Source: Escherichia phage TH12
Sequence record: MT446390.1
Direction: 5' to 3' (one strand)
DNA length: 64,000 nucleotides
Part shown: in pieces, positions 1,467-7,616 of the stretch
Layout of the letters: the number at the start of each line of letters is the position of its first letter
Numbering within the stretch: position 1 is the first letter of the stretch
Position numbers and translations under genes: made by a program
Notes under the pieces: model-generated
Seen by the model: only the letters and a program-made list of their open reading frames with translations
What the model was told of the DNA's origin: nothing
Database searches by the model: none

Positions 1467-1753
1467 TTAAATTAATCGCAGTTGTATTATCTATTGGCAT
1501 TTTGGCTGGATGTGCCCAGGATGTGCCCTTAAGCCCTAAAGAAACTTTACATCCGCCATGGCCTGAATCTATTGTTGAATATAACCAGAAATGGCAAGTA
1601 AAGGTTATTGATGGTAATCCGTGGGTTGGAATGCCATTTGAAGACTCTCAAGAATTTCGTATCTGGTTAAACGACGTAAAAAGATATGTACATGACCAGA
1701 AGACTATGATATGTTATTATCGTAGTGGTTTAAAAGAGGAAAAATGCCAATGA
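1463..1753 (+). CDS. o-spanin lipoprotein (Rz1-like; T4 pseT.2 equivalent)
   Basis: Signal peptide with lipobox LAGC (MIKLIAVVLSIGILAGC) directly after the i-spanin. Confidence 0.7.
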   Translation: MIKLIAVVLSIGILAGCAQDVPLSPKETLHPPWPESIVEYNQKWQVKVIDGNPWVGMPFEDSQEFRIWLNDVKRYVHDQKTMICYYRSGLKEEKCQ

Positions 1754-1968
1754 CTAAAGAACAGCATGAATACATTAAAGGGCTTATCTATGAATCTGAA
1801 ATGGCGGCTATGATTTATGGGCGCCAGATTCAACGATTAGAATCTTTGCCTCCGACTAATGACCGATTGTTAGTTCAGTCTCGTGCTAATCTGAAAAATG
1901 AATATCAGAATAAGTGGGCAGTAGCGACTAAAGCTCTTCATGAGTATATCGAATCTTTAGTAAAATAG
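1744..1968 (+). CDS. hypothetical protein (74 aa)
   Basis: Compact ORF in syntenic early operon, phage-like codon usage. Confidence 0.5.
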   Translation: MPMTKEQHEYIKGLIYESEMAAMIYGRQIQRLESLPPTNDRLLVQSRANLKNEYQNKWAVATKALHEYIESLVK

Positions 1969-1998
1969 TTTACAAACTCTCGGGAGCAGAGTATAATG
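1968..1998 (+). promoter_or_regulatory. T4-type early promoter
   Basis: GTTTAC 1968-1973, TATAAT 1993-1998; dyad GGAGCA/TGCTCC flanks the -10. Confidence 0.55.
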
Positions 1999-2025
1999 CT
2001 CCTATGGATAATTGAGGAAATCTAA

Positions 2026-2324
2026 ATGAAAACATTACTAGAGAATTACATCAAACGGTCTGATGAGTATATTGATATCTGTCGTGGAATGTCACTTGGC
2101 AATTATGACAAAGATGCAGCAAAGGCACTAGATGAAGCAGGTAAAGCTCTTCGTAAAGCTGCTAAAGAAAAAGGGTTGGATTTGCAACAACTCAAAAGTC
2201 ATATGATTAAATTTATTTCTTCAAACGTTAGAAGTACGTCAATTAATAAAAACGTTGCTGAAATTAATAAAGACCGGCGCGAGCATAACATTCGTATTCT
2301 TGAAATTTTCTTAGGAATAAAATA

Positions 2325-2325
<1 letters not shown>
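2026..2325 (+). CDS. hypothetical protein (99 aa)
   Basis: ATG with GAGGAAA RBS downstream of early promoter. Confidence 0.55.
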
Positions 2326-3411
<1,086 letters not shown>

Positions 3412-3412
<1 letters not shown>

Positions 3413-3603
3413 TGAAACGATTATATGAAGTGATTGAGGCCATCGAACAGCATAAAGAATATTTGTTTGTAGCCTGGCCTTTAGTAAATGGACAGTTCGG
3501 TATTGATGTGCTGGACTATGAGCATGAAGAACGTTTGGACGGTGGTATATTTGATAACGTCGACCAGGCAATTGAATGGTTAAATGAAAACTATGTACGA
3601 TAA
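3412..3603 (+). CDS. hypothetical protein (63 aa)
   Basis: ORF coupled to pseT stop. Confidence 0.5.
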
Positions 3604-3808
3604 ACATCATGAAATCGAAGATGAAGCATACAAAATGCTTCGTAAACTAGTGGGACTTAATATGAGTCCTACATTAATCAACAAACTCGCAGGAATTCGT
3701 AATGATCTGAATACTCGTTACAAAGGCGAATATCATGTAGAGTTTGTTCCTGTAGGTGAACCGACCGAGCGATTTGTTGTTCGAGTTAAAGTAAATACTG
3801 TACACTGA
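3584..3808 (+). CDS. hypothetical protein (74 aa)
   Basis: ORF in cd.x-like variable region. Confidence 0.45.
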   Translation: MKTMYDKHHEIEDEAYKMLRKLVGLNMSPTLINKLAGIRNDLNTRYKGEYHVEFVPVGEPTERFVVRVKVNTVH

Positions 3809-3815
3809 GGTAATT

Positions 3816-4091
3816 ATGTTCCCAACTTATTCTGAAATTGTAAAGGTAGTCTTCAGTCAGATTATTGCTAATAATATGTTTGAAGTGCTTGATAATGCAG
3901 CCGAACTCAGAGTTCATGCTCAACTAACTCATGTACTCAATGCTTTGCTCCCAGACCAAGTAGATTCTATTGCTATTACTCTTCTCCCTGGGTCTGCACA
4001 CGTCATAGTGGTATTTGGTCTTGACGGCGATTTAGTTATCCAATGTGATATCAATTTCGGTACACAAAAAATTGAATGCAAAGCAATTTAA
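3816..4091 (+). CDS. hypothetical protein (91 aa)
   Basis: ORF in cd.x-like variable region. Confidence 0.5.
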   Translation: MFPTYSEIVKVVFSQIIANNMFEVLDNAAELRVHAQLTHVLNALLPDQVDSIAITLLPGSAHVIVVFGLDGDLVIQCDINFGTQKIECKAI

Positions 4092-4093
4092 TG

Positions 4094-4123
4094 GTTTACA
4101 ACATGGTGGAGTTGTGATACTAT
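4094..4123 (+). promoter_or_regulatory. T4-type early promoter
   Basis: GTTTAC 4094-4099, TACTAT 4118-4123. Confidence 0.55.
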
Positions 4124-4151
4124 AACTCTACCAACAAATGAGGAAATAGAA

Positions 4152-4388
4152 ATGCTAAGTGAAAACCCAATCACAGTACACGAATTTCAGATTAAAGTAA
4201 AAGAATTTGCTCAAGCACTCATCAATAAAGTGTCTGAACGTTTCCAAGATGCAACATTACGAGTTATTCAAGAATCTCCACGTTCTTTTCTCATAATCGT
4301 TAATCCTAAAGATGGTGACCAAATTACTAATCTTAAATTAGGCAGTGACGGTCTTGTTGAAGCAACTCGAGTGTATGGAACACTATAA
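4152..4388 (+). CDS. hypothetical protein (78 aa)
   Basis: AGGAAATAGAAATG RBS/start downstream of early promoter. Confidence 0.55.
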   Translation: MLSENPITVHEFQIKVKEFAQALINKVSERFQDATLRVIQESPRSFLIIVNPKDGDQITNLKLGSDGLVEATRVYGTL

Positions 4389-4508
4389 TGAGAGTTATCT
4401 CATTACTATCGAGAATGGTCATAAATCTGAGCACTACCAACTTAGCCTGTCTAATCCGGTTAAAGGTATTGTTGAATCAGAATCTGTTTATATCTCCTAA
4501 GGATTGTT

Positions 4509-5501
4509 ATGTTACCTGTCGTCGGAAAACTTATTTCTCCAAAAGAACTGGCTGAGATTATTCCTTTGTCGGAAGCTTACGCATCACAAGTGGCTTCTCA
4601 TCGCGAACAAGTTAATTCGATTATGAACGGTGAAGACCCACGCAAACTTATTGTTGTAGGTCCTTGTTCAATTCATGACCCTATTGCTGCTGTTGAATAC
4701 GGCAAACGTCTGGCTGAACTTCAAACTCGTCTTCCTAATGTTCTGTTAGTGATGCGCGTTTATTTTGAAAAGCCTCGAACTACCGTAGGTTGGAAAGGTC
4801 TTGTAAATGATCCATATCTTGACGGAAGTTTTGATATGAACCACGGTCTTATAGTTGCACGAACATTGTGTCGTAAACTTCTACGTATGGGACTTCCATT
4901 AGCAACTGAAGTATTAGACCCATTCACGATTAAGTATCTTTCTGGTATTTTCTCATGGGTTGCTATTGGCGCACGTACGACTGAAAGTCAGACACATCGT
5001 GAAATTGCTTCAGGTCTACCGATGTGCGTAGGCTTCAAGAACGCAACCAATGGTTCTATTAAAGTAGCTACAGACGCGATGTATAGTGCCGCCTGGCCTC
5101 ATCGGTATATGGGTATGGACGTCGATGGTACTGTAGGCATTGTTGAAGCTGAAGGTAATCAGAATACGCATATCGTATTGCGTGGCGGGACCAACGGCCC
5201 GAACTATCATTCTTCTGATATTCAAGAAGCTTCTAACAAAGCAAGGGCAGTAGGTCTGAATCATTATGTAATGGTTGACTGTAGCCATGCAAACGCTGAT
5301 GGGCATTATAGCAATCAAATTGATATTGGTAAAAATTTAGCAGCTAATGATTTGGTCAAAGGAATTATGATAGAATCGTTCCTACATGAAGGAAATCAAA
5401 AAATTTCTGATAATATGTCCTATGGCGTTTCCGTTACCGATGCGTGCATCAGTTGGGAACAAACTAAAGAGCTGTTAACTTATATTAATAAGGTTCAATA
5501 A
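4509..5501 (+). CDS. 3-deoxy-D-arabino-heptulosonate-7-phosphate (DAHP) synthase, class I (AroG/AroF/AroH family)
   Basis: Motifs KLIVVGPCSIHDP, RVYFEKPRTTVGWKGL, GARTTESQTHREIASG, DCSHAN, IMIESFLHEGNQ, TDACISWE alignable to E. coli AroG from memory; AAGGA RBS; stop overlaps cd start. Confidence 0.85.
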   Translation: MLPVVGKLISPKELAEIIPLSEAYASQVASHREQVNSIMNGEDPRKLIVVGPCSIHDPIAAVEYGKRLAELQTRLPNVLLVMRVYFEKPRTTVGWKGLVNDPYLDGSFDMNHGLIVARTLCRKLLRMGLPLATEVLDPFTIKYLSGIFSWVAIGARTTESQTHREIASGLPMCVGFKNATNGSIKVATDAMYSAAWPHRYMGMDVDGTVGIVEAEGNQNTHIVLRGGTNGPNYHSSDIQEASNKARAVGLNHYVMVDCSHANADGHYSNQIDIGKNLAANDLVKGIMIESFLHEGNQKISDNMSYGVSVTDACISWEQTKELLTYINKVQ

Positions 5502-6082
5502 TGAAAGCTAGCACATACCTTCAGATTGCATATCTGATTTCTCAAGAATCAAAATGTTGTTCATGGAAAGTTGGTGCCGTCATTGAAAAAGATGGACGCA
5601 TTATTTCTACAGGTTATAATGGCTCTCCTTCAGGTGGTGTTAACTGTTGTGAACATGCATCCGAAAACGGTTGGTTGAAGAATAAACCAAGCCCGGTCAT
5701 CGTTGCTGGGCATAAAGAAGGCACTACAGCATTTGGACGGGTGGATAATTTTGTTTTGGCTAAAGAACATCGGGCTGCTCATAGTGCATGGTCCGCTAAT
5801 AACGAAATCCATGCGGAACTGAATGCAATTTTGTTTGCAGCTCGTAAAGGTAATTCTATTGAAGGTGCTACGTTATATACTACGCTTTCTCCGTGTCCTG
5901 ATTGCACTAAAGCTATTACACAGTCAGGTATTAAAAAGGTTGTATATGCAGAATTATATGACCGATCTCCTGAAAATTGGGCAGACATTCTTAAACAAGC
6001 CGGTATTGAAGTAATTCAGTACTCTCGTAATAATCTTCGTTCTCTGAATTGGGAACAAATCCGAAACTTTTGTGGTGAATAA
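5501..6082 (+). CDS. cd: dCMP deaminase
   Basis: Zinc-binding HAELNAI and PCPDC motifs; near full-length resemblance to T4 Cd. Confidence 0.95.
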   Translation: MKASTYLQIAYLISQESKCCSWKVGAVIEKDGRIISTGYNGSPSGGVNCCEHASENGWLKNKPSPVIVAGHKEGTTAFGRVDNFVLAKEHRAAHSAWSANNEIHAELNAILFAARKGNSIEGATLYTTLSPCPDCTKAITQSGIKKVVYAELYDRSPENWADILKQAGIEVIQYSRNNLRSLNWEQIRNFCGE

Positions 6083-6083
6083 T

Positions 6084-6380
6084 ATGATTTTAACTGAACA
6101 AGAAACTATGGTTCTTCGTGAACGTATTAAAACTATTCTGTCTGTAGGCGTTCATTGTGTTGTATTTGAAAAGGCTAACGGCGATGTTCGTACGATGTTT
6201 GCCTCCCGTGATGAACTTGAAGTCAAATACGAAAATAACAATCCGGCAACAGAAGTTCGTTCTGAACCTCGTGAATCAGTTCGAGCATTCGATACCAAGT
6301 TAGGTCAGTGGCGTTCTTTCCGCCTTGATAAAGTAATTTCGGTTGATGGTACTCCGGTAGAACGTTTGCTTCTTATGTAA
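6084..6380 (+). CDS. hypothetical protein (T4 31.1/31.2-like position)
   Basis: ATG at 6084 with GGTGA RBS; the listed ORF start at 6072 is a GTG extension. Confidence 0.55.
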   Translation: MILTEQETMVLRERIKTILSVGVHCVVFEKANGDVRTMFASRDELEVKYENNNPATEVRSEPRESVRAFDTKLGQWRSFRLDKVISVDGTPVERLLLM

Positions 6381-6382
6381 TA

Positions 6383-6407
6383 TGCTTTACGAATAGTATG
6401 GTATTAT
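6383..6407 (+). promoter_or_regulatory. T4 middle promoter (MotA box TGCTTTA plus -10 TATTAT)
   Basis: TGCTTTA 6383-6389, 12 nt spacer, TATTAT 6402-6407, upstream of gene 31. Confidence 0.55.
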
Positions 6408-6437
6408 TAATCTATCGTCAAACAATAAGGAAATAAG

Positions 6438-6770
6438 ATGTCTGAAGTACAACTCCCAATTCGTGCTGTTGGTGAATATGTCATTCTGGTTTCTGAACCC
6501 GCTCAAGCAGGTGATGAAGAAGTTACCGAATCAGGACTTGTGATTGGTAAACGTATTCAAGGTGAAGTTCCTGAACTATGTGTAGTTCATTCTGTAGGTC
6601 CTGATGTTCCTAAAGGTTTTGTTGAAGTCGGTGATTTGACTCCACTACCAGTTGGACAAATTCGAAATGTTCCACATCCATTTGTGGCTTTGGGACTTAA
6701 ACAACCTAAAGAAATTAAACAGAAATTCGTAACATGCCACTATAAAGCTATTCCGTGTCTTTATAAGTGA
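6438..6770 (+). CDS. 31: co-chaperonin for GroEL (GroES analogue)
   Basis: Near-identical over full length to T4 gp31 as recalled (MSEV...[23 protein letters not shown]...). Confidence 0.95.
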
Positions 6771-6778
6771 TATAAATA
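6771..6778 (+). promoter_or_regulatory. T4 late promoter TATAAATA
   Basis: Exact TATAAATA immediately after gene 31 stop, followed by hairpin GAAGAG-AACA-CTCTTC (6786-6801). Confidence 0.45.
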
Positions 6779-6894
6779 ACTATATGAAGAGAACACTCTT
6801 CTAAGCGGTAGCCTACAACTGAGAGACTTGTCGAAAGAAGGTGAAATTCAGACGAACGTGGCTACTAAATATTATCTCGAATTGAGAATTTAAA

Positions 6895-7143
6895 ATGATT
6901 AAACAATTACAACACGCTCTTGAACTGCAACGCAACGCATGGAATAACGGTCACGAAAACTACGGCGCGTCAATTGATGTTGAAGCCGAAGCACTGGAAA
7001 TCCTGCGTTATTTCAAACACCTGAATCCTGCTCAGGCTACTCTGGCTTCTGAACTGGAAGCTAAAGATGAATTGAAATATGCTAAGCCTCTGGCTTCTGC
7101 AGCACGCAAAGCAGTTCGTCATTTTGTTATTACTTTGAAATAA
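6895..7143 (+). CDS. rIII: possible rIII lysis-inhibition accessory protein (82 aa)
   Basis: Size and position directly downstream of gene 31 as in T4; sequence identity not verified. Confidence 0.5.
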   Translation: MIKQLQHALELQRNAWNNGHENYGASIDVEAEALEILRYFKHLNPAQATLASELEAKDELKYAKPLASAARKAVRHFVITLK

Positions 7144-7306
7144 TTGCTATCATGCGTCAGCAAAAGGTTAGCTGTGTAAGTCATGGTAGGTATGATGACG
7201 GGTTTATGGTTATCCTGTCGTTAAATACCCAAAACCTATGTTCCCCTTGAGGGCTTGCGCAGGCAATGTCAATAAGTCCTGCATTTTCATTTAAAGAGAA
7301 TTTATA

Positions 7307-7486
7307 ATGGCAAAACAAGCTAAAGCAAAGAAAGCAGTTGAAAAGAAAGTTGATGGTACCTCTAAACGCGCTGGATACAAGCGTGGGTCGAACTCTCGTA
7401 TTAATCAAACAGTTGAGAAGATCATGCGCAGAGCACGTGCAGTTCTTCGAGATGATGCTTCTCGTTTTGGAAAGGTTGTTGCATAA
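7307..7486 (+). CDS. small basic hypothetical protein (59 aa; not in supplied ORF list)
   Basis: ATG at 7307 to TAA at 7484-7486, Lys/Arg-rich, immediately followed by a strong terminator hairpin. Confidence 0.45.
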   Translation: MAKQAKAKKAVEKKVDGTSKRAGYKRGSNSRINQTVEKIMRRARAVLRDDASRFGKVVA

Positions 7487-7491
7487 TTTTA

Positions 7492-7515
7492 GGGAGACTT
7501 CGGTCTCCCTTTTGT
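7492..7515 (+). terminator. rho-independent terminator, GGGAGAC-UUCG-GUCUCCC hairpin plus U tract
   Basis: Perfect 7 bp GC-rich stem with UUCG tetraloop followed by TTTTGTG. Confidence 0.7.
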
Positions 7516-7546
7516 GCGTTTAGGGCAGAAAAAGTTTAAAAAAGAT

Positions 7547-7575
7547 GTTTACTCTCCTGTAGGATGTGTTACTAT
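7547..7575 (+). promoter_or_regulatory. T4-type early promoter
   Basis: GTTTAC 7547-7552, TACTAT 7570-7575, then GGAGAATAAAATG. Confidence 0.55.
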
Positions 7576-7616
7576 AGACTTGTACCACCTAATCAATAAA
7601 ACAACCGGAGAATAAA

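Follow-up and report, generated by a model that had tools for sequence, protein, structure and literature searches.

DAHP synthase converts PEP and erythrose-4-phosphate (E4P) into DAHP and inorganic phosphate, the reaction that opens the aromatic amino-acid pathway. In the feedback-regulated enzymes, the N-terminal segment (residues 6–10 of AroG) contributes to the inhibitor site of the neighboring subunit. Residues Q151/Q152 and S180/S181 (AroG/AroF numbering) contact the inhibitor Phe or Tyr, with the Ser side chain binding the inhibitor main chain (PMC9529685). The P150L substitution confers complete feedback resistance on AroG, and the AroG variants S180F and F209A/S are likewise feedback-resistant (PMC9529685). 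The yeast enzyme Aro4 has a standard feedback-resistant allele, Q166K (PMC7513737, PMC5879953), and Aro4 Q166 is equivalent to AroG Q151. AroF P148L and Aro4 K229L are further feedback-resistant alleles.

DAHP synthase has also been named in print as an auxiliary metabolic gene of Mosigvirus and Kanagawavirus, and a 2020 survey lists it for Mosigvirus with an unknown role. In the searchable literature, phage DAHP synthases are mentioned in genome descriptions only, and we found no functional study, enzyme assay, or infection phenotype for any of them. Here, we analyzed the copy carried by Escherichia phage TH12 (MT446390.1) in a stretch of 64,000 nucleotides, referred to below as the window. 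An earlier sequence-only reading of this DNA implied that the gene was a novelty, which it is not. Near-identical proteins (99.7%) are labeled DAHP synthase in many Mosigvirus records, and the protein belongs to a PHROG of its own (phrog_5045, E = 2.8e-182) in the category "moron, auxiliary metabolic gene and host takeover". The existence and the annotation of the gene are already known, and the annotation itself adds nothing.

A type I-alpha DAHP synthase gene between pseT and cd

The open reading frame at 4509..5501 on the plus strand starts with ATG and encodes 330 amino acids. Its product matches PF00793 (E = 1.8e-75; 253.8 bits against a cutoff of 25.5), the domain search that the sequence-only reading had proposed as a check, and the NCBIfam aroFGH equivalog TIGR00034 (429.9 bits against 173.2). 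On the basis of these matches, the frame is a real gene and not a chance occurrence. The protein also exceeds the cutoff of PRK12755 (456.2 bits against 343) and does not reach those of the isozyme-specific models for AroG (365 against 568) and AroH (388 against 463). The nearest relative of solved structure is E. coli AroF (6agm, E = 1e-104). The AF2 model (pLDDT 91.4, pTM 0.91) is a (beta/alpha)8 barrel with a beta6a/beta6b hairpin insertion (strands 198–203 and 209–214), and Foldseek aligns it with the DAHP synthases of N. meningitidis and E. coli at TM 0.95 and an rmsd of 1.5–1.9 Å. Family, solved relative, and predicted fold all place the protein among the class I (type I-alpha) DAHP synthases, as had been proposed from the letters alone, and every motif quoted in support of that assignment is present in the translation.

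KDO8P synthase (KdsA), the other branch of PF00793, shares the superfamily and the PEP-aldol chemistry with the phage protein. The KPRT motif separates DAHP synthase from KDO8P synthase. In the phage protein, this PEP/E4P-phosphate motif aligns as K88-P89-R90-T91 (4770..4781, plus strand; AroG KPRT 97–100) and is of the DAHP synthase type; it is invariant in the smaller alignment of 11 sequences and has a single Thr-to-Ser exception in the larger one of 131. Only DAHP synthase families were matched in NCBIfam (E <= 0.001), and we rejected the KdsA identity.

All four metal ligands have the counterparts anticipated from AroG: Cys53 (AroG Cys61, the first ligand; codon at 4665..4667), His260 (AroG His268; 5286–5288), Glu289 (AroG Glu302; 5373–5375), and Asp311 (AroG Asp326; 5439–5441). 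Each lies on the plus strand and is invariant in 131 of 131 aligned sequences. The expected PEP-binding Lys and Arg residues were recovered as well, since the alignment to AroG places R83, K88-P89-R90-T91, R156, K177, and R225 at the PEP/E4P positions Arg92, Lys97-Pro-Arg-Thr100, Arg165, Lys186, and Arg234, all of them kept and, apart from the Thr-to-Ser exception above, invariant. We infer that the protein is a catalytically competent, metal-dependent type I-alpha enzyme.

Upstream of the gene are pseT (polynucleotide kinase/3'-phosphatase; 2513..3412, plus strand; HAD_PNKP, E = 1.5e-58) and a 78-residue cd.2 homologue (4152..4388, plus strand) that matches DUF7320 and phrog_1504. Downstream, cd (dCMP deaminase; 5501..6082, plus strand; Pfam dCMP_cyt_deam_1, E = 3.5e-26) begins within the DAHP synthase stop codon, the final A of TAA being the first base of the cd ATG at 5501. 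A Shine–Dalgarno-like AAGGA can be read directly in the sequence at 4499..4503 (plus strand), 5 nt before the DAHP synthase ATG. The GC3 value of 0.296 falls within the range of neighboring phage genes (0.15–0.35), against 0.51–0.57 in E. coli aroF, aroG, and aroH, which confirms phage-like codon usage. The overlap with cd and the embedding of the gene in the early pseT–cd operon, both noted previously, are thus upheld by the neighboring genes and the composition. Small cd.x ORFs do fill this slot in T4, as the sequence-only reading had stated, with T4 cd.1 lying exactly at the place of the DAHP synthase gene here.

A consensus scan located a sigma-70/T4-early-type promoter-like site (TTTACA-17-TACTAT with TG before the −10; 4095..4123, plus strand) that lies between the homologues of cd.3 and cd.2, in a scanned region where the total count of consensus matches is not above chance. 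Its position matches that of an early promoter which the T4 record notes between these two genes. No terminator-like site was found on the plus strand from 1500 to 7600, and thus none between the promoter-like site and cd. MotA-box middle promoters (TGCTT-N11-13-TANNNT) gave 12 matches against 11.8 expected, with none on the plus strand near the DAHP synthase gene. The promoter-like site probably drives cd.2, the DAHP synthase gene, and cd, and early transcription of the DAHP synthase gene together with cd.2 and dCMP deaminase is probable. Scans of the window for tRNA genes and Rfam families returned no matches.

Cassette, distribution, and selection

By blastn, positions 2001–4403 and 5498–7143 of the window align with the pseT–cd region of RB69 at 96–97% and nothing aligns between them, which defines a cassette of 1.09 kb (4404..5497) that is present here and absent from RB69. 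Both edges carry ATAATGA.AG.TA.C.CAT, with 15 of 19 positions identical. DAHP synthase is absent from the T4 slot and, within the pseT–cd interval and the gene 43 region, from RB69. A 41-residue ORF (4375..4500, plus strand) at the left edge is, according to PHROG matches and alignment, a cd.2 copy of the Kanagawavirus/Klebsiella-phage type, diverged and limited to the C-terminal half (phrog_15876, E = 1.9e-32; phrog_1504 positions 44–76 of 77, E = 1.8e-5). This ORF looks like a recombination scar, and the presence of a cd.2 fragment beside the DAHP synthase gene points to transfer between T4-like phages.

A DAHP synthase homologue occurs in 212 of 50,697 phage records. The pseT–cd slot carries the gene in Mosigvirus, Kanagawavirus, a Klebsiella T4-like group, Winklervirus, and Bragavirus, with one or two small ORFs between it and cd in the last two genera. 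Identity to the DAHP synthases of other T4-like genera is 58–77%. The slot and the pocket signature described below are shared with the same gene in T4-like phages that include O157 typing phages 3, 6, and 13, JS09, Shf125875, PEi20/PEi26, KLB31, X20, and PM2, and the copy in the window shows no difference of substance from other members of PHROG 5045. A survey of T4-like genomes had been suggested, and universal presence with prior characterization had been named as what would remove the novelty; the gene is not universal, as the T4 and RB69 slots show, but many of the 212 records already annotate it as DAHP synthase. Its candidacy as an auxiliary metabolic gene stands, given a host-type enzyme that lies outside the replication and structural core, is variably present among close relatives, and carries that PHROG category.

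When placed in a phylogeny with bacterial and phage homologues, the proteins of T4-like phages form a monophyletic clade (n = 30) that shares no more than 57% identity with any protein outside it. We rejected a recent bacterial donor: outside phages, the best homologues level off at 50–55% identity and are spread over many phyla, and no donor is identifiable. Between genera, dN/dS is 0.14–0.21 with dS > 1, and the gene is under purifying selection. The high dS, the divergence of the clade, and a GC3 at the phage value all argue for long residence in phages. That the gene is a decaying or functionless passenger of the cassette is hardly credible even with its dispensability in RB69 and T4, because the frame is intact, every catalytic residue is kept, dN/dS stays this low where synonymous divergence is saturated, and at least five genera maintain the gene.

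The N-terminus and the inhibitor pocket

Relative to AroG, the phage enzyme is 8 residues shorter at the N-terminus (9 relative to AroF) and 5 residues shorter at the C-terminus. Within the chain, it has three deletions (1, 5, and 2 residues) and an insertion of a single residue. Shortening at both ends had been recognized previously; the N-terminal figure of about 7 residues is replaced by 8, as phage Leu2 aligns with AroG Ile10 (AroF Ile11; Met1-Leu2 at 4509..4514, plus strand). Missing are the equivalents of AroG residues 2–9, including the segment with AroG Asp6-Asp7 (AroF Asn7-Asn8). We compared the 30 members of the T4-like-phage clade with 98 bacterial homologues. AroG positions 6–7 are deleted in 30/30 phage proteins and present in 98/98 bacterial ones; the whole clade (30/30) lacks the N-terminal 8–9 residues, and at most 52 residues precede the metal-binding Cys, against a median of 62 in bacteria. 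Residues 1–10 of the AF2 model are coil, and the beta0 strand is absent.

The lining of the pocket is changed as well. Ile141-Lys142 (4929..4934, plus strand) replaces AroG Pro150-Gln151 (AroF Pro151-Gln152, Aro4 Pro165-Gln166), Pro171 (5019..5021, plus strand) replaces AroG Ser180 (AroF Ser181), and Tyr200-Met-Gly202 (5106..5114, plus strand) aligns with AroG Phe209-Leu-Ser211. In AroG numbering, position 150 is Ile in 30/30 phage proteins and Pro in 93/98 bacterial ones; position 151 is Lys in 29 phage proteins and Arg in one (Gln in 98/98 bacterial homologues); position 180 is Pro in 30/30 (Ser in 97/98); and position 209 is Tyr in 30/30 (Phe in 97/98). These replacements run through the whole phage clade and are not seen in the bacterial homologues. 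Position 211 is Gly in both groups, the residue of the Tyr-sensitive (AroF/Aro4) type. The features of the feedback-regulated subclass are therefore missing, with I141, K142, P171, and Y200 in place of the canonical Pro150, Gln151, Ser180, and Phe209 and the N-terminal segment (AroG 6–10) gone.

AroF (PDB 6AGM/6AGL), with ~51% identity over the trimmed alignment, shares the (beta/alpha)8 fold, the metal ligands, the PEP/E4P residues, and Gly at the Tyr/Phe selectivity position. In contrast to AroF, the phage enzyme lacks residues 2–10 including Asn7-Asn8, carries Ile-Lys, Pro, and Tyr in place of Pro151-Gln152, Ser181, and Phe210, totals 26 residues fewer, and is encoded with AT-rich codons. 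The alignments to AroG and AroF thus retain the catalytic residues and replace those of the allosteric pocket.

The phage changes fall at the same pocket positions as the feedback-resistant alleles introduced above, and at AroG-151/Aro4-166 the Gln-to-Lys substitution is identical to that of Aro4 Q166K. Unlike laboratory alleles, the phage enzyme combines several changes with an N-terminal deletion, fixed by natural selection in a virus. AroF Pro148 (phage Pro138, aligned with AroG Met147) and AroG Asp146 are unaltered. Because the substitutions lie where single mutations abolish inhibition, and with the N-terminus missing, the phage enzyme is probably feedback-insensitive by nature. Reduced feedback sensitivity had been raised previously as a possibility, and the truncation together with the clade-wide replacement of four pocket residues strengthens it. 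Weighing against this proposal, apart from Gln to Lys the phage residues differ from those of characterized mutants: position 150 has Ile instead of Leu, position 180 has Pro instead of Phe, and the Tyr at 209 is a conservative change. In addition, the regulatory scaffold is largely kept in the model (the beta6a/6b hairpin and the greater part of the N-terminal helix), so a pocket may persist.

A rival explanation is an ordinary, Tyr-inhibited AroF-type enzyme that simply adds dosage, with pocket changes due to neutral drift in a fast-evolving lineage; Gly at AroG-211, the retained hairpin, and AroF as the best solved relative are all in keeping with it. We consider this explanation unlikely, however, since positions that are near-invariant in bacteria of many phyla (93–98/98) have changed and are invariant in the phage clade over dS > 1, which indicates a fixed functional shift and not drift, and since single changes there, including the same Gln to Lys, abolish inhibition in model enzymes. 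A pocket re-tuned to another effector, such as an acidic or phage-relevant metabolite, would leave the enzyme regulated, though not by aromatic amino acids. The gain of a Lys, the loss of two acidic or amide residues at the N-terminus, the swap of the lining for a fixed set (I-K, P, Y) on a retained scaffold that is not degraded, and the location in a nucleotide-metabolism operon next to the allosterically regulated dCMP deaminase could all be read in this way. Such re-tuning is nevertheless quite unlikely, as nothing points positively to any ligand and a pocket that has lost its N-terminal lid would be opened, not reshaped.

A proposed role during infection

Overall, we favor, with a probability of roughly 0.6, a competent AroF-derived DAHP synthase with a rebuilt pocket that sustains shikimate flow during infection. 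The enzyme would have originated from a Tyr-sensitive (AroF-like) bacterial enzyme, followed by long residence in T4-like phages of Enterobacterales. The catalytic barrel is untouched, whereas the allosteric pocket is rebuilt and has lost the N-terminal segment with which the adjacent subunit closes it. With the Pro-Gln, Ser, and Phe inhibitor contacts turned into Ile-Lys, Pro, and Tyr, the amino acids Tyr, Phe, and Trp would most likely be unable to switch the enzyme off. In infected cells, host expression is shut down, and in amino-acid-rich surroundings the host isozymes are feedback-inhibited or repressed; the phage enzyme would then keep carbon entering the shikimate pathway, so that virion protein could be supplied with aromatic amino acids and the cell with cofactors made from chorismate, such as folate. 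On balance, the evidence favors somewhat the view that T4-like phages of Enterobacterales have evolved a naturally feedback-blind DAHP synthase, pass it between them as a small cassette, and with it override host control of carbon entry into aromatic biosynthesis during infection.

Several points count against this role. T4 and RB69 thrive with no DAHP synthase in the slot, so any benefit would be conditional. The usefulness of the first enzyme alone assumes that, once cells are infected, DAHP synthase limits the rate of the pathway. The promoter was called from a consensus match of a kind no commoner there than chance.

A different use of an unregulated DAHP synthase would be to drain E4P and PEP, pushing transketolase toward pentose phosphates for nucleotides and for arabinose-5-phosphate-dependent DNA glycosylation. 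This idea draws on the nucleotide-metabolism operon and on the presence of the arabinose-5-phosphate isomerase of the DNA-arabinosylation pathway in most genera with DAHP synthase (Mosigvirus, Kanagawavirus, Winklervirus, Bragavirus, EcS1, SdyM_006). We compared the two distributions by tblastn with the RB69 isomerase. The isomerase occurs in 57 Acinetobacter phage records, but a DAHP synthase match in only 4 Acinetobacter records, on small contigs and at ~45–48% identity; DAHP synthase occurs in 25 Klebsiella phage records, but the isomerase in at most 3; and RB69, in which arabinosylated DNA was demonstrated, has no DAHP synthase in the slot. These mismatches contradict an obligatory link between DAHP synthase and DNA arabinosylation (arabinosylated cytosines in RB69-type phages), which we rejected, and the overlap in several genera is therefore explained by shared ancestry. 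The arabinosylation pathway starts from ribulose-5-phosphate and does not require DAHP (PMC13326640). We also reason that the non-oxidative pentose pathway works without a sink and that the drain would waste four carbons and a PEP per pentose, making this explanation very unlikely.

If feedback loss is confirmed, the cassette would stand as a clear case from nature of a virus stripping the allosteric brake from a host-derived enzyme and not merely adding a copy, with the pocket disabled through changes of the kind that metabolic engineers obtain by laboratory selection. The phage protein would then give engineers of the shikimate pathway a feedback-resistant DAHP synthase that evolution has already made and tested. 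It would also be a testable handle on whether aromatic or chorismate supply limits the production of T4-like phages where nutrients are plentiful, as in the gut. RB69, which lacks the cassette, and most other Mosigvirus isolates, which carry it, provide a near-isogenic contrast for such experiments.

Identity and active site of the enzyme

The ORF at 4509..5501 (+) opens with ATG, 5 nt downstream of an AAGGA sequence on the same strand, and encodes a 330-residue type I-alpha DAHP synthase (DAHPS). A sequence-only reading had named it a complete class I enzyme and a candidate auxiliary metabolic gene, and had proposed an HMM search; we obtained a significant match to Pfam DAHP_synth_1 (E = 1.8e-75), a score of 429.9 bits against the NCBIfam aroFGH equivalog TIGR00034 (cut-off 173), and, in the translation, all of the motifs that reading had quoted. 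The AroG- and AroH-specific NCBIfam cut-offs are not reached, and among solved structures the closest is that of E. coli AroF (6AGM; E = 1e-104). An AlphaFold2 model (52 homologues; pLDDT 91.4, pTM 0.91) reaches a TM of 0.95 when superposed on the DAHP synthases of N. meningitidis and E. coli. The observation is thus confirmed and the interpretation of the gene supported.

Aligned with AroG, AroF, and AroH from the MG1655 record, DAHPS has identical counterparts, as previously claimed, of the AroG metal ligands C61, H268, E302, and D326 (C53, H260, E289, and D311) and of the substrate-binding residues R92, K97-P-R-T100, R165, K186, and R234 (R83, K88-T91, R156, K177, and R225). The roles of these residues in binding metal, PEP, and E4P are established from published AroG structures. 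Across 131 aligned sequences, neither the metal ligands nor the basic residues vary, and KPRT is almost as strictly conserved. Because these residues are kept, DAHPS is very probably an active DAHP synthase. A KDO8P synthase can be ruled out, since DAHP synthase models alone match and KPRT is present.

By tblastn, 212 of 50,697 phage records contain the gene: 139 match at ≥95% identity (Mosigvirus), and the remainder, at 58-77%, belong to T4-like phages of Klebsiella, Enterobacter, Edwardsiella, Serratia, Erwinia, Proteus, and others. In many of the 212 records it is labeled "phospho-2-dehydro-3-deoxyheptonate aldolase", "aroF", or "DAHP synthetase"; the family has its own PHROG (5045, category "moron, auxiliary metabolic gene and host takeover"), a 2020 survey counts the gene among the auxiliary metabolic genes of Mosigvirus, and it has been named in print for phiC120 and for Kanagawavirus KLB31. 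The novelty implied in the sequence-only reading is therefore low, as databases and papers already record the gene. Full-text literature searches returned no work on the biochemistry or genetics of a phage DAHPS.

Remodeling of the feedback pocket

The residual interest lies in a clade-wide, mutation-like remodeling of the feedback site, which goes beyond existing annotations, is directly testable, and was not found described in the literature searched. We compared 30 DAHPS sequences from T4-like phages (the phage clade) with 98 bacterial homologues in AroG numbering. The phage clade has Ile at position 150 (30/30; bacteria Pro, 93/98), Lys (29/30) or Arg (1/30) at 151 (bacteria Gln, 98/98), Pro at 180 (30/30; bacteria Ser, 97/98), and Tyr at 209 (30/30; bacteria Phe, 97/98). 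Positions 6-7, present in all 98 bacterial sequences, are deleted in all 30 phage sequences. According to the 1KFL structure paper, the Phe site of AroG is reportedly lined by residues 6-10 from the N-terminus of the neighboring subunit. DAHPS starts with Met-Leu, and this Leu falls opposite AroG Ile10 and AroF Ile11; in its model, the N-terminal beta strand is absent and the beta6a/6b hairpin is retained. Gly at position 211 is a mark of descent from the Tyr-sensitive type.

In AroG, P150L confers complete Phe resistance, S180F, F209A, and F209S are also resistant, and the inhibitor is bound by Gln151 (Gln152 in AroF) and Ser180/Ser181 (PMC9529685). Yeast Aro4 Q166K is a feedback-resistant allele in routine use (PMC5879953, PMC7513737); because Aro4 residues 160-251 align with AroG 145-236, Gln166 corresponds to AroG Gln151, where the phage clade carries the identical Gln-to-Lys change. 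From these replacements and the published mutant effects, we infer, with a probability of about two in three, that DAHPS has lost its sensitivity to inhibition by aromatic amino acids. One main alternative is that such inhibition persists, against which the same replacements and resistant alleles weigh; the other is that the pocket scaffold, which is retained, now binds another effector.

Two relatives differ in their pockets. P0022, a protein from a metagenomic contig (gene at 2517-3515), has an intermediate signature of Lys151, Pro180, and Tyr209, but Pro150 is kept and the N-terminus is slightly longer, a hint as to which pocket changes came first. A distant homologue (~37% identity; 3899-5062 of its locus) in the unrelated, non-T4-like 79-kb Aeromonas phage HJ05 has a long N-terminal extension, Ala-His for Pro150-Gln151, and Pro for Ser180, and may be an independent instance of pocket alteration in a phage DAHP synthase.

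Descent and probable transfer of the gene

DAHPS lies downstream of the PseT polynucleotide kinase/phosphatase gene (2513..3412, +; HAD_PNKP, E = 1.5e-58) and upstream of the dCMP deaminase gene cd (+; Pfam dCMP_cyt_deam_1, E = 3.5e-26), whose ATG at 5501 shares one base with the DAHPS TAA stop, an overlap correctly noted beforehand. The pseT-cd gap also holds small ORFs of the T4 cd.x families (DUF7355, DUF7320; phrog_1695, phrog_1504). The phage is a Mosigvirus, an RB69-like T4 relative, with 98.5% identity to phage vB_EcoM_NBG1 across the DAHPS region.

A survey of T4-like genomes and a phylogeny, both suggested by the sequence-only reading, placed the gene in the pseT-cd interval of Mosigvirus, Kanagawavirus, a Klebsiella T4-like group, Winklervirus, and Bragavirus, and recovered the 30 phage sequences as monophyletic in a neighbor-joining tree. 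Their sister is P0022, whose contig also bears T4-type neighbor genes; identity between any member and any non-member is at most 57%. Searching 5.8 billion proteins gave one group of phage sequences (319-343 aa, 55-98% identity) and another of bacterial enzymes from many phyla, with a plateau at 50-55%. The GC3 of 0.296 falls among the values of neighboring phage genes, far from the 0.51-0.57 of E. coli aroF/G/H, bearing out the phage-like codon usage reported earlier. Together with dN/dS of 0.14-0.21 against other genera (synonymous sites saturated), slot sharing, monophyly, and GC3 indicate that the gene is old in T4-like phages and under purifying selection.

RB69 (NC_004928, 128000-138000) aligns at 96-97% identity over 2001-4403 and 5498-7143, with nothing aligned between: it lacks the whole 1.09-kb segment 4404-5497, and its cd.2 stop lies directly against the start of cd. 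In T4, cd.1 occupies the place of DAHPS, in line with the small cd.x ORFs previously named for this slot. Both segment edges carry ATAATGA.AG.TA.C.CAT (15/19 bases identical), a 19-nt imperfect repeat that includes the TAATG stop/start junction. A 41-codon ORF at 4375-4500 (+; phrog_15876), overlapping the end of cd.2, aligns with phrog_1504 positions 44-76, which make up the C-terminal half in the cd.2 family; the ORF is diverged and closer to Kanagawavirus/Klebsiella-phage cd.2 than to the preceding Mosigvirus/T4-type cd.2. This ORF looks like a scar of recombination that brought the 3' half of a foreign cd.2 plus DAHPS into a Mosigvirus backbone, probably indicating cassette transfer between T4-like phage genera. 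That reading agrees with the nearest DAHPS outside Mosigvirus being that of Kanagawavirus (77% identity).

Proposed expression and role

A consensus scan gave a promoter-like TTTACA-17-TACTAT with an upstream TG at 4095-4123 (+), between the cd.3 and cd.2 homologues. Because scan matches overall were not above chance, the argument for this promoter is purely positional: the T4 record annotates an early promoter at the matching place. The scan found no + strand terminator-like site from there to cd. Early, deregulated DAHPS would let carbon still enter the shikimate pathway once host transcription stops, independently of external Tyr, Phe, or Trp, and would in this way provide aromatic amino acids as well as cofactors made from chorismate.

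The DNA of RB69-type phages is arabinosylated through an arabinose-5-phosphate isomerase pathway (PMC13326640). By tblastn, the RB69 isomerase (RB69p055; 5964-6599 of its locus) is in 275 phage records; most DAHPS-bearing genera have it too, and the two genes occur together in several genera of Enterobacterales phages. An obligatory link is rejected because three distributions break it: the RB69 slot is without DAHPS; Acinetobacter phages have the isomerase in 57 records, but DAHPS matches come from only 4 Acinetobacter records (small contigs, ~45-48% identity); and Klebsiella phages have DAHPS in 25 records and the isomerase in at most 3.

Across the 64-kb window, ARAGORN detected no tRNA gene, and every Rfam family stayed below its gathering score. 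On the 3' side of cd, the ORF at 6072-6380 (+) matches phrog_1086 (unknown function; T4 31.1/31.2 region). Some records label its relatives "tail fibers protein", which is probably an annotation artifact of a weak tail-fiber PHROG match (E = 1e-8).
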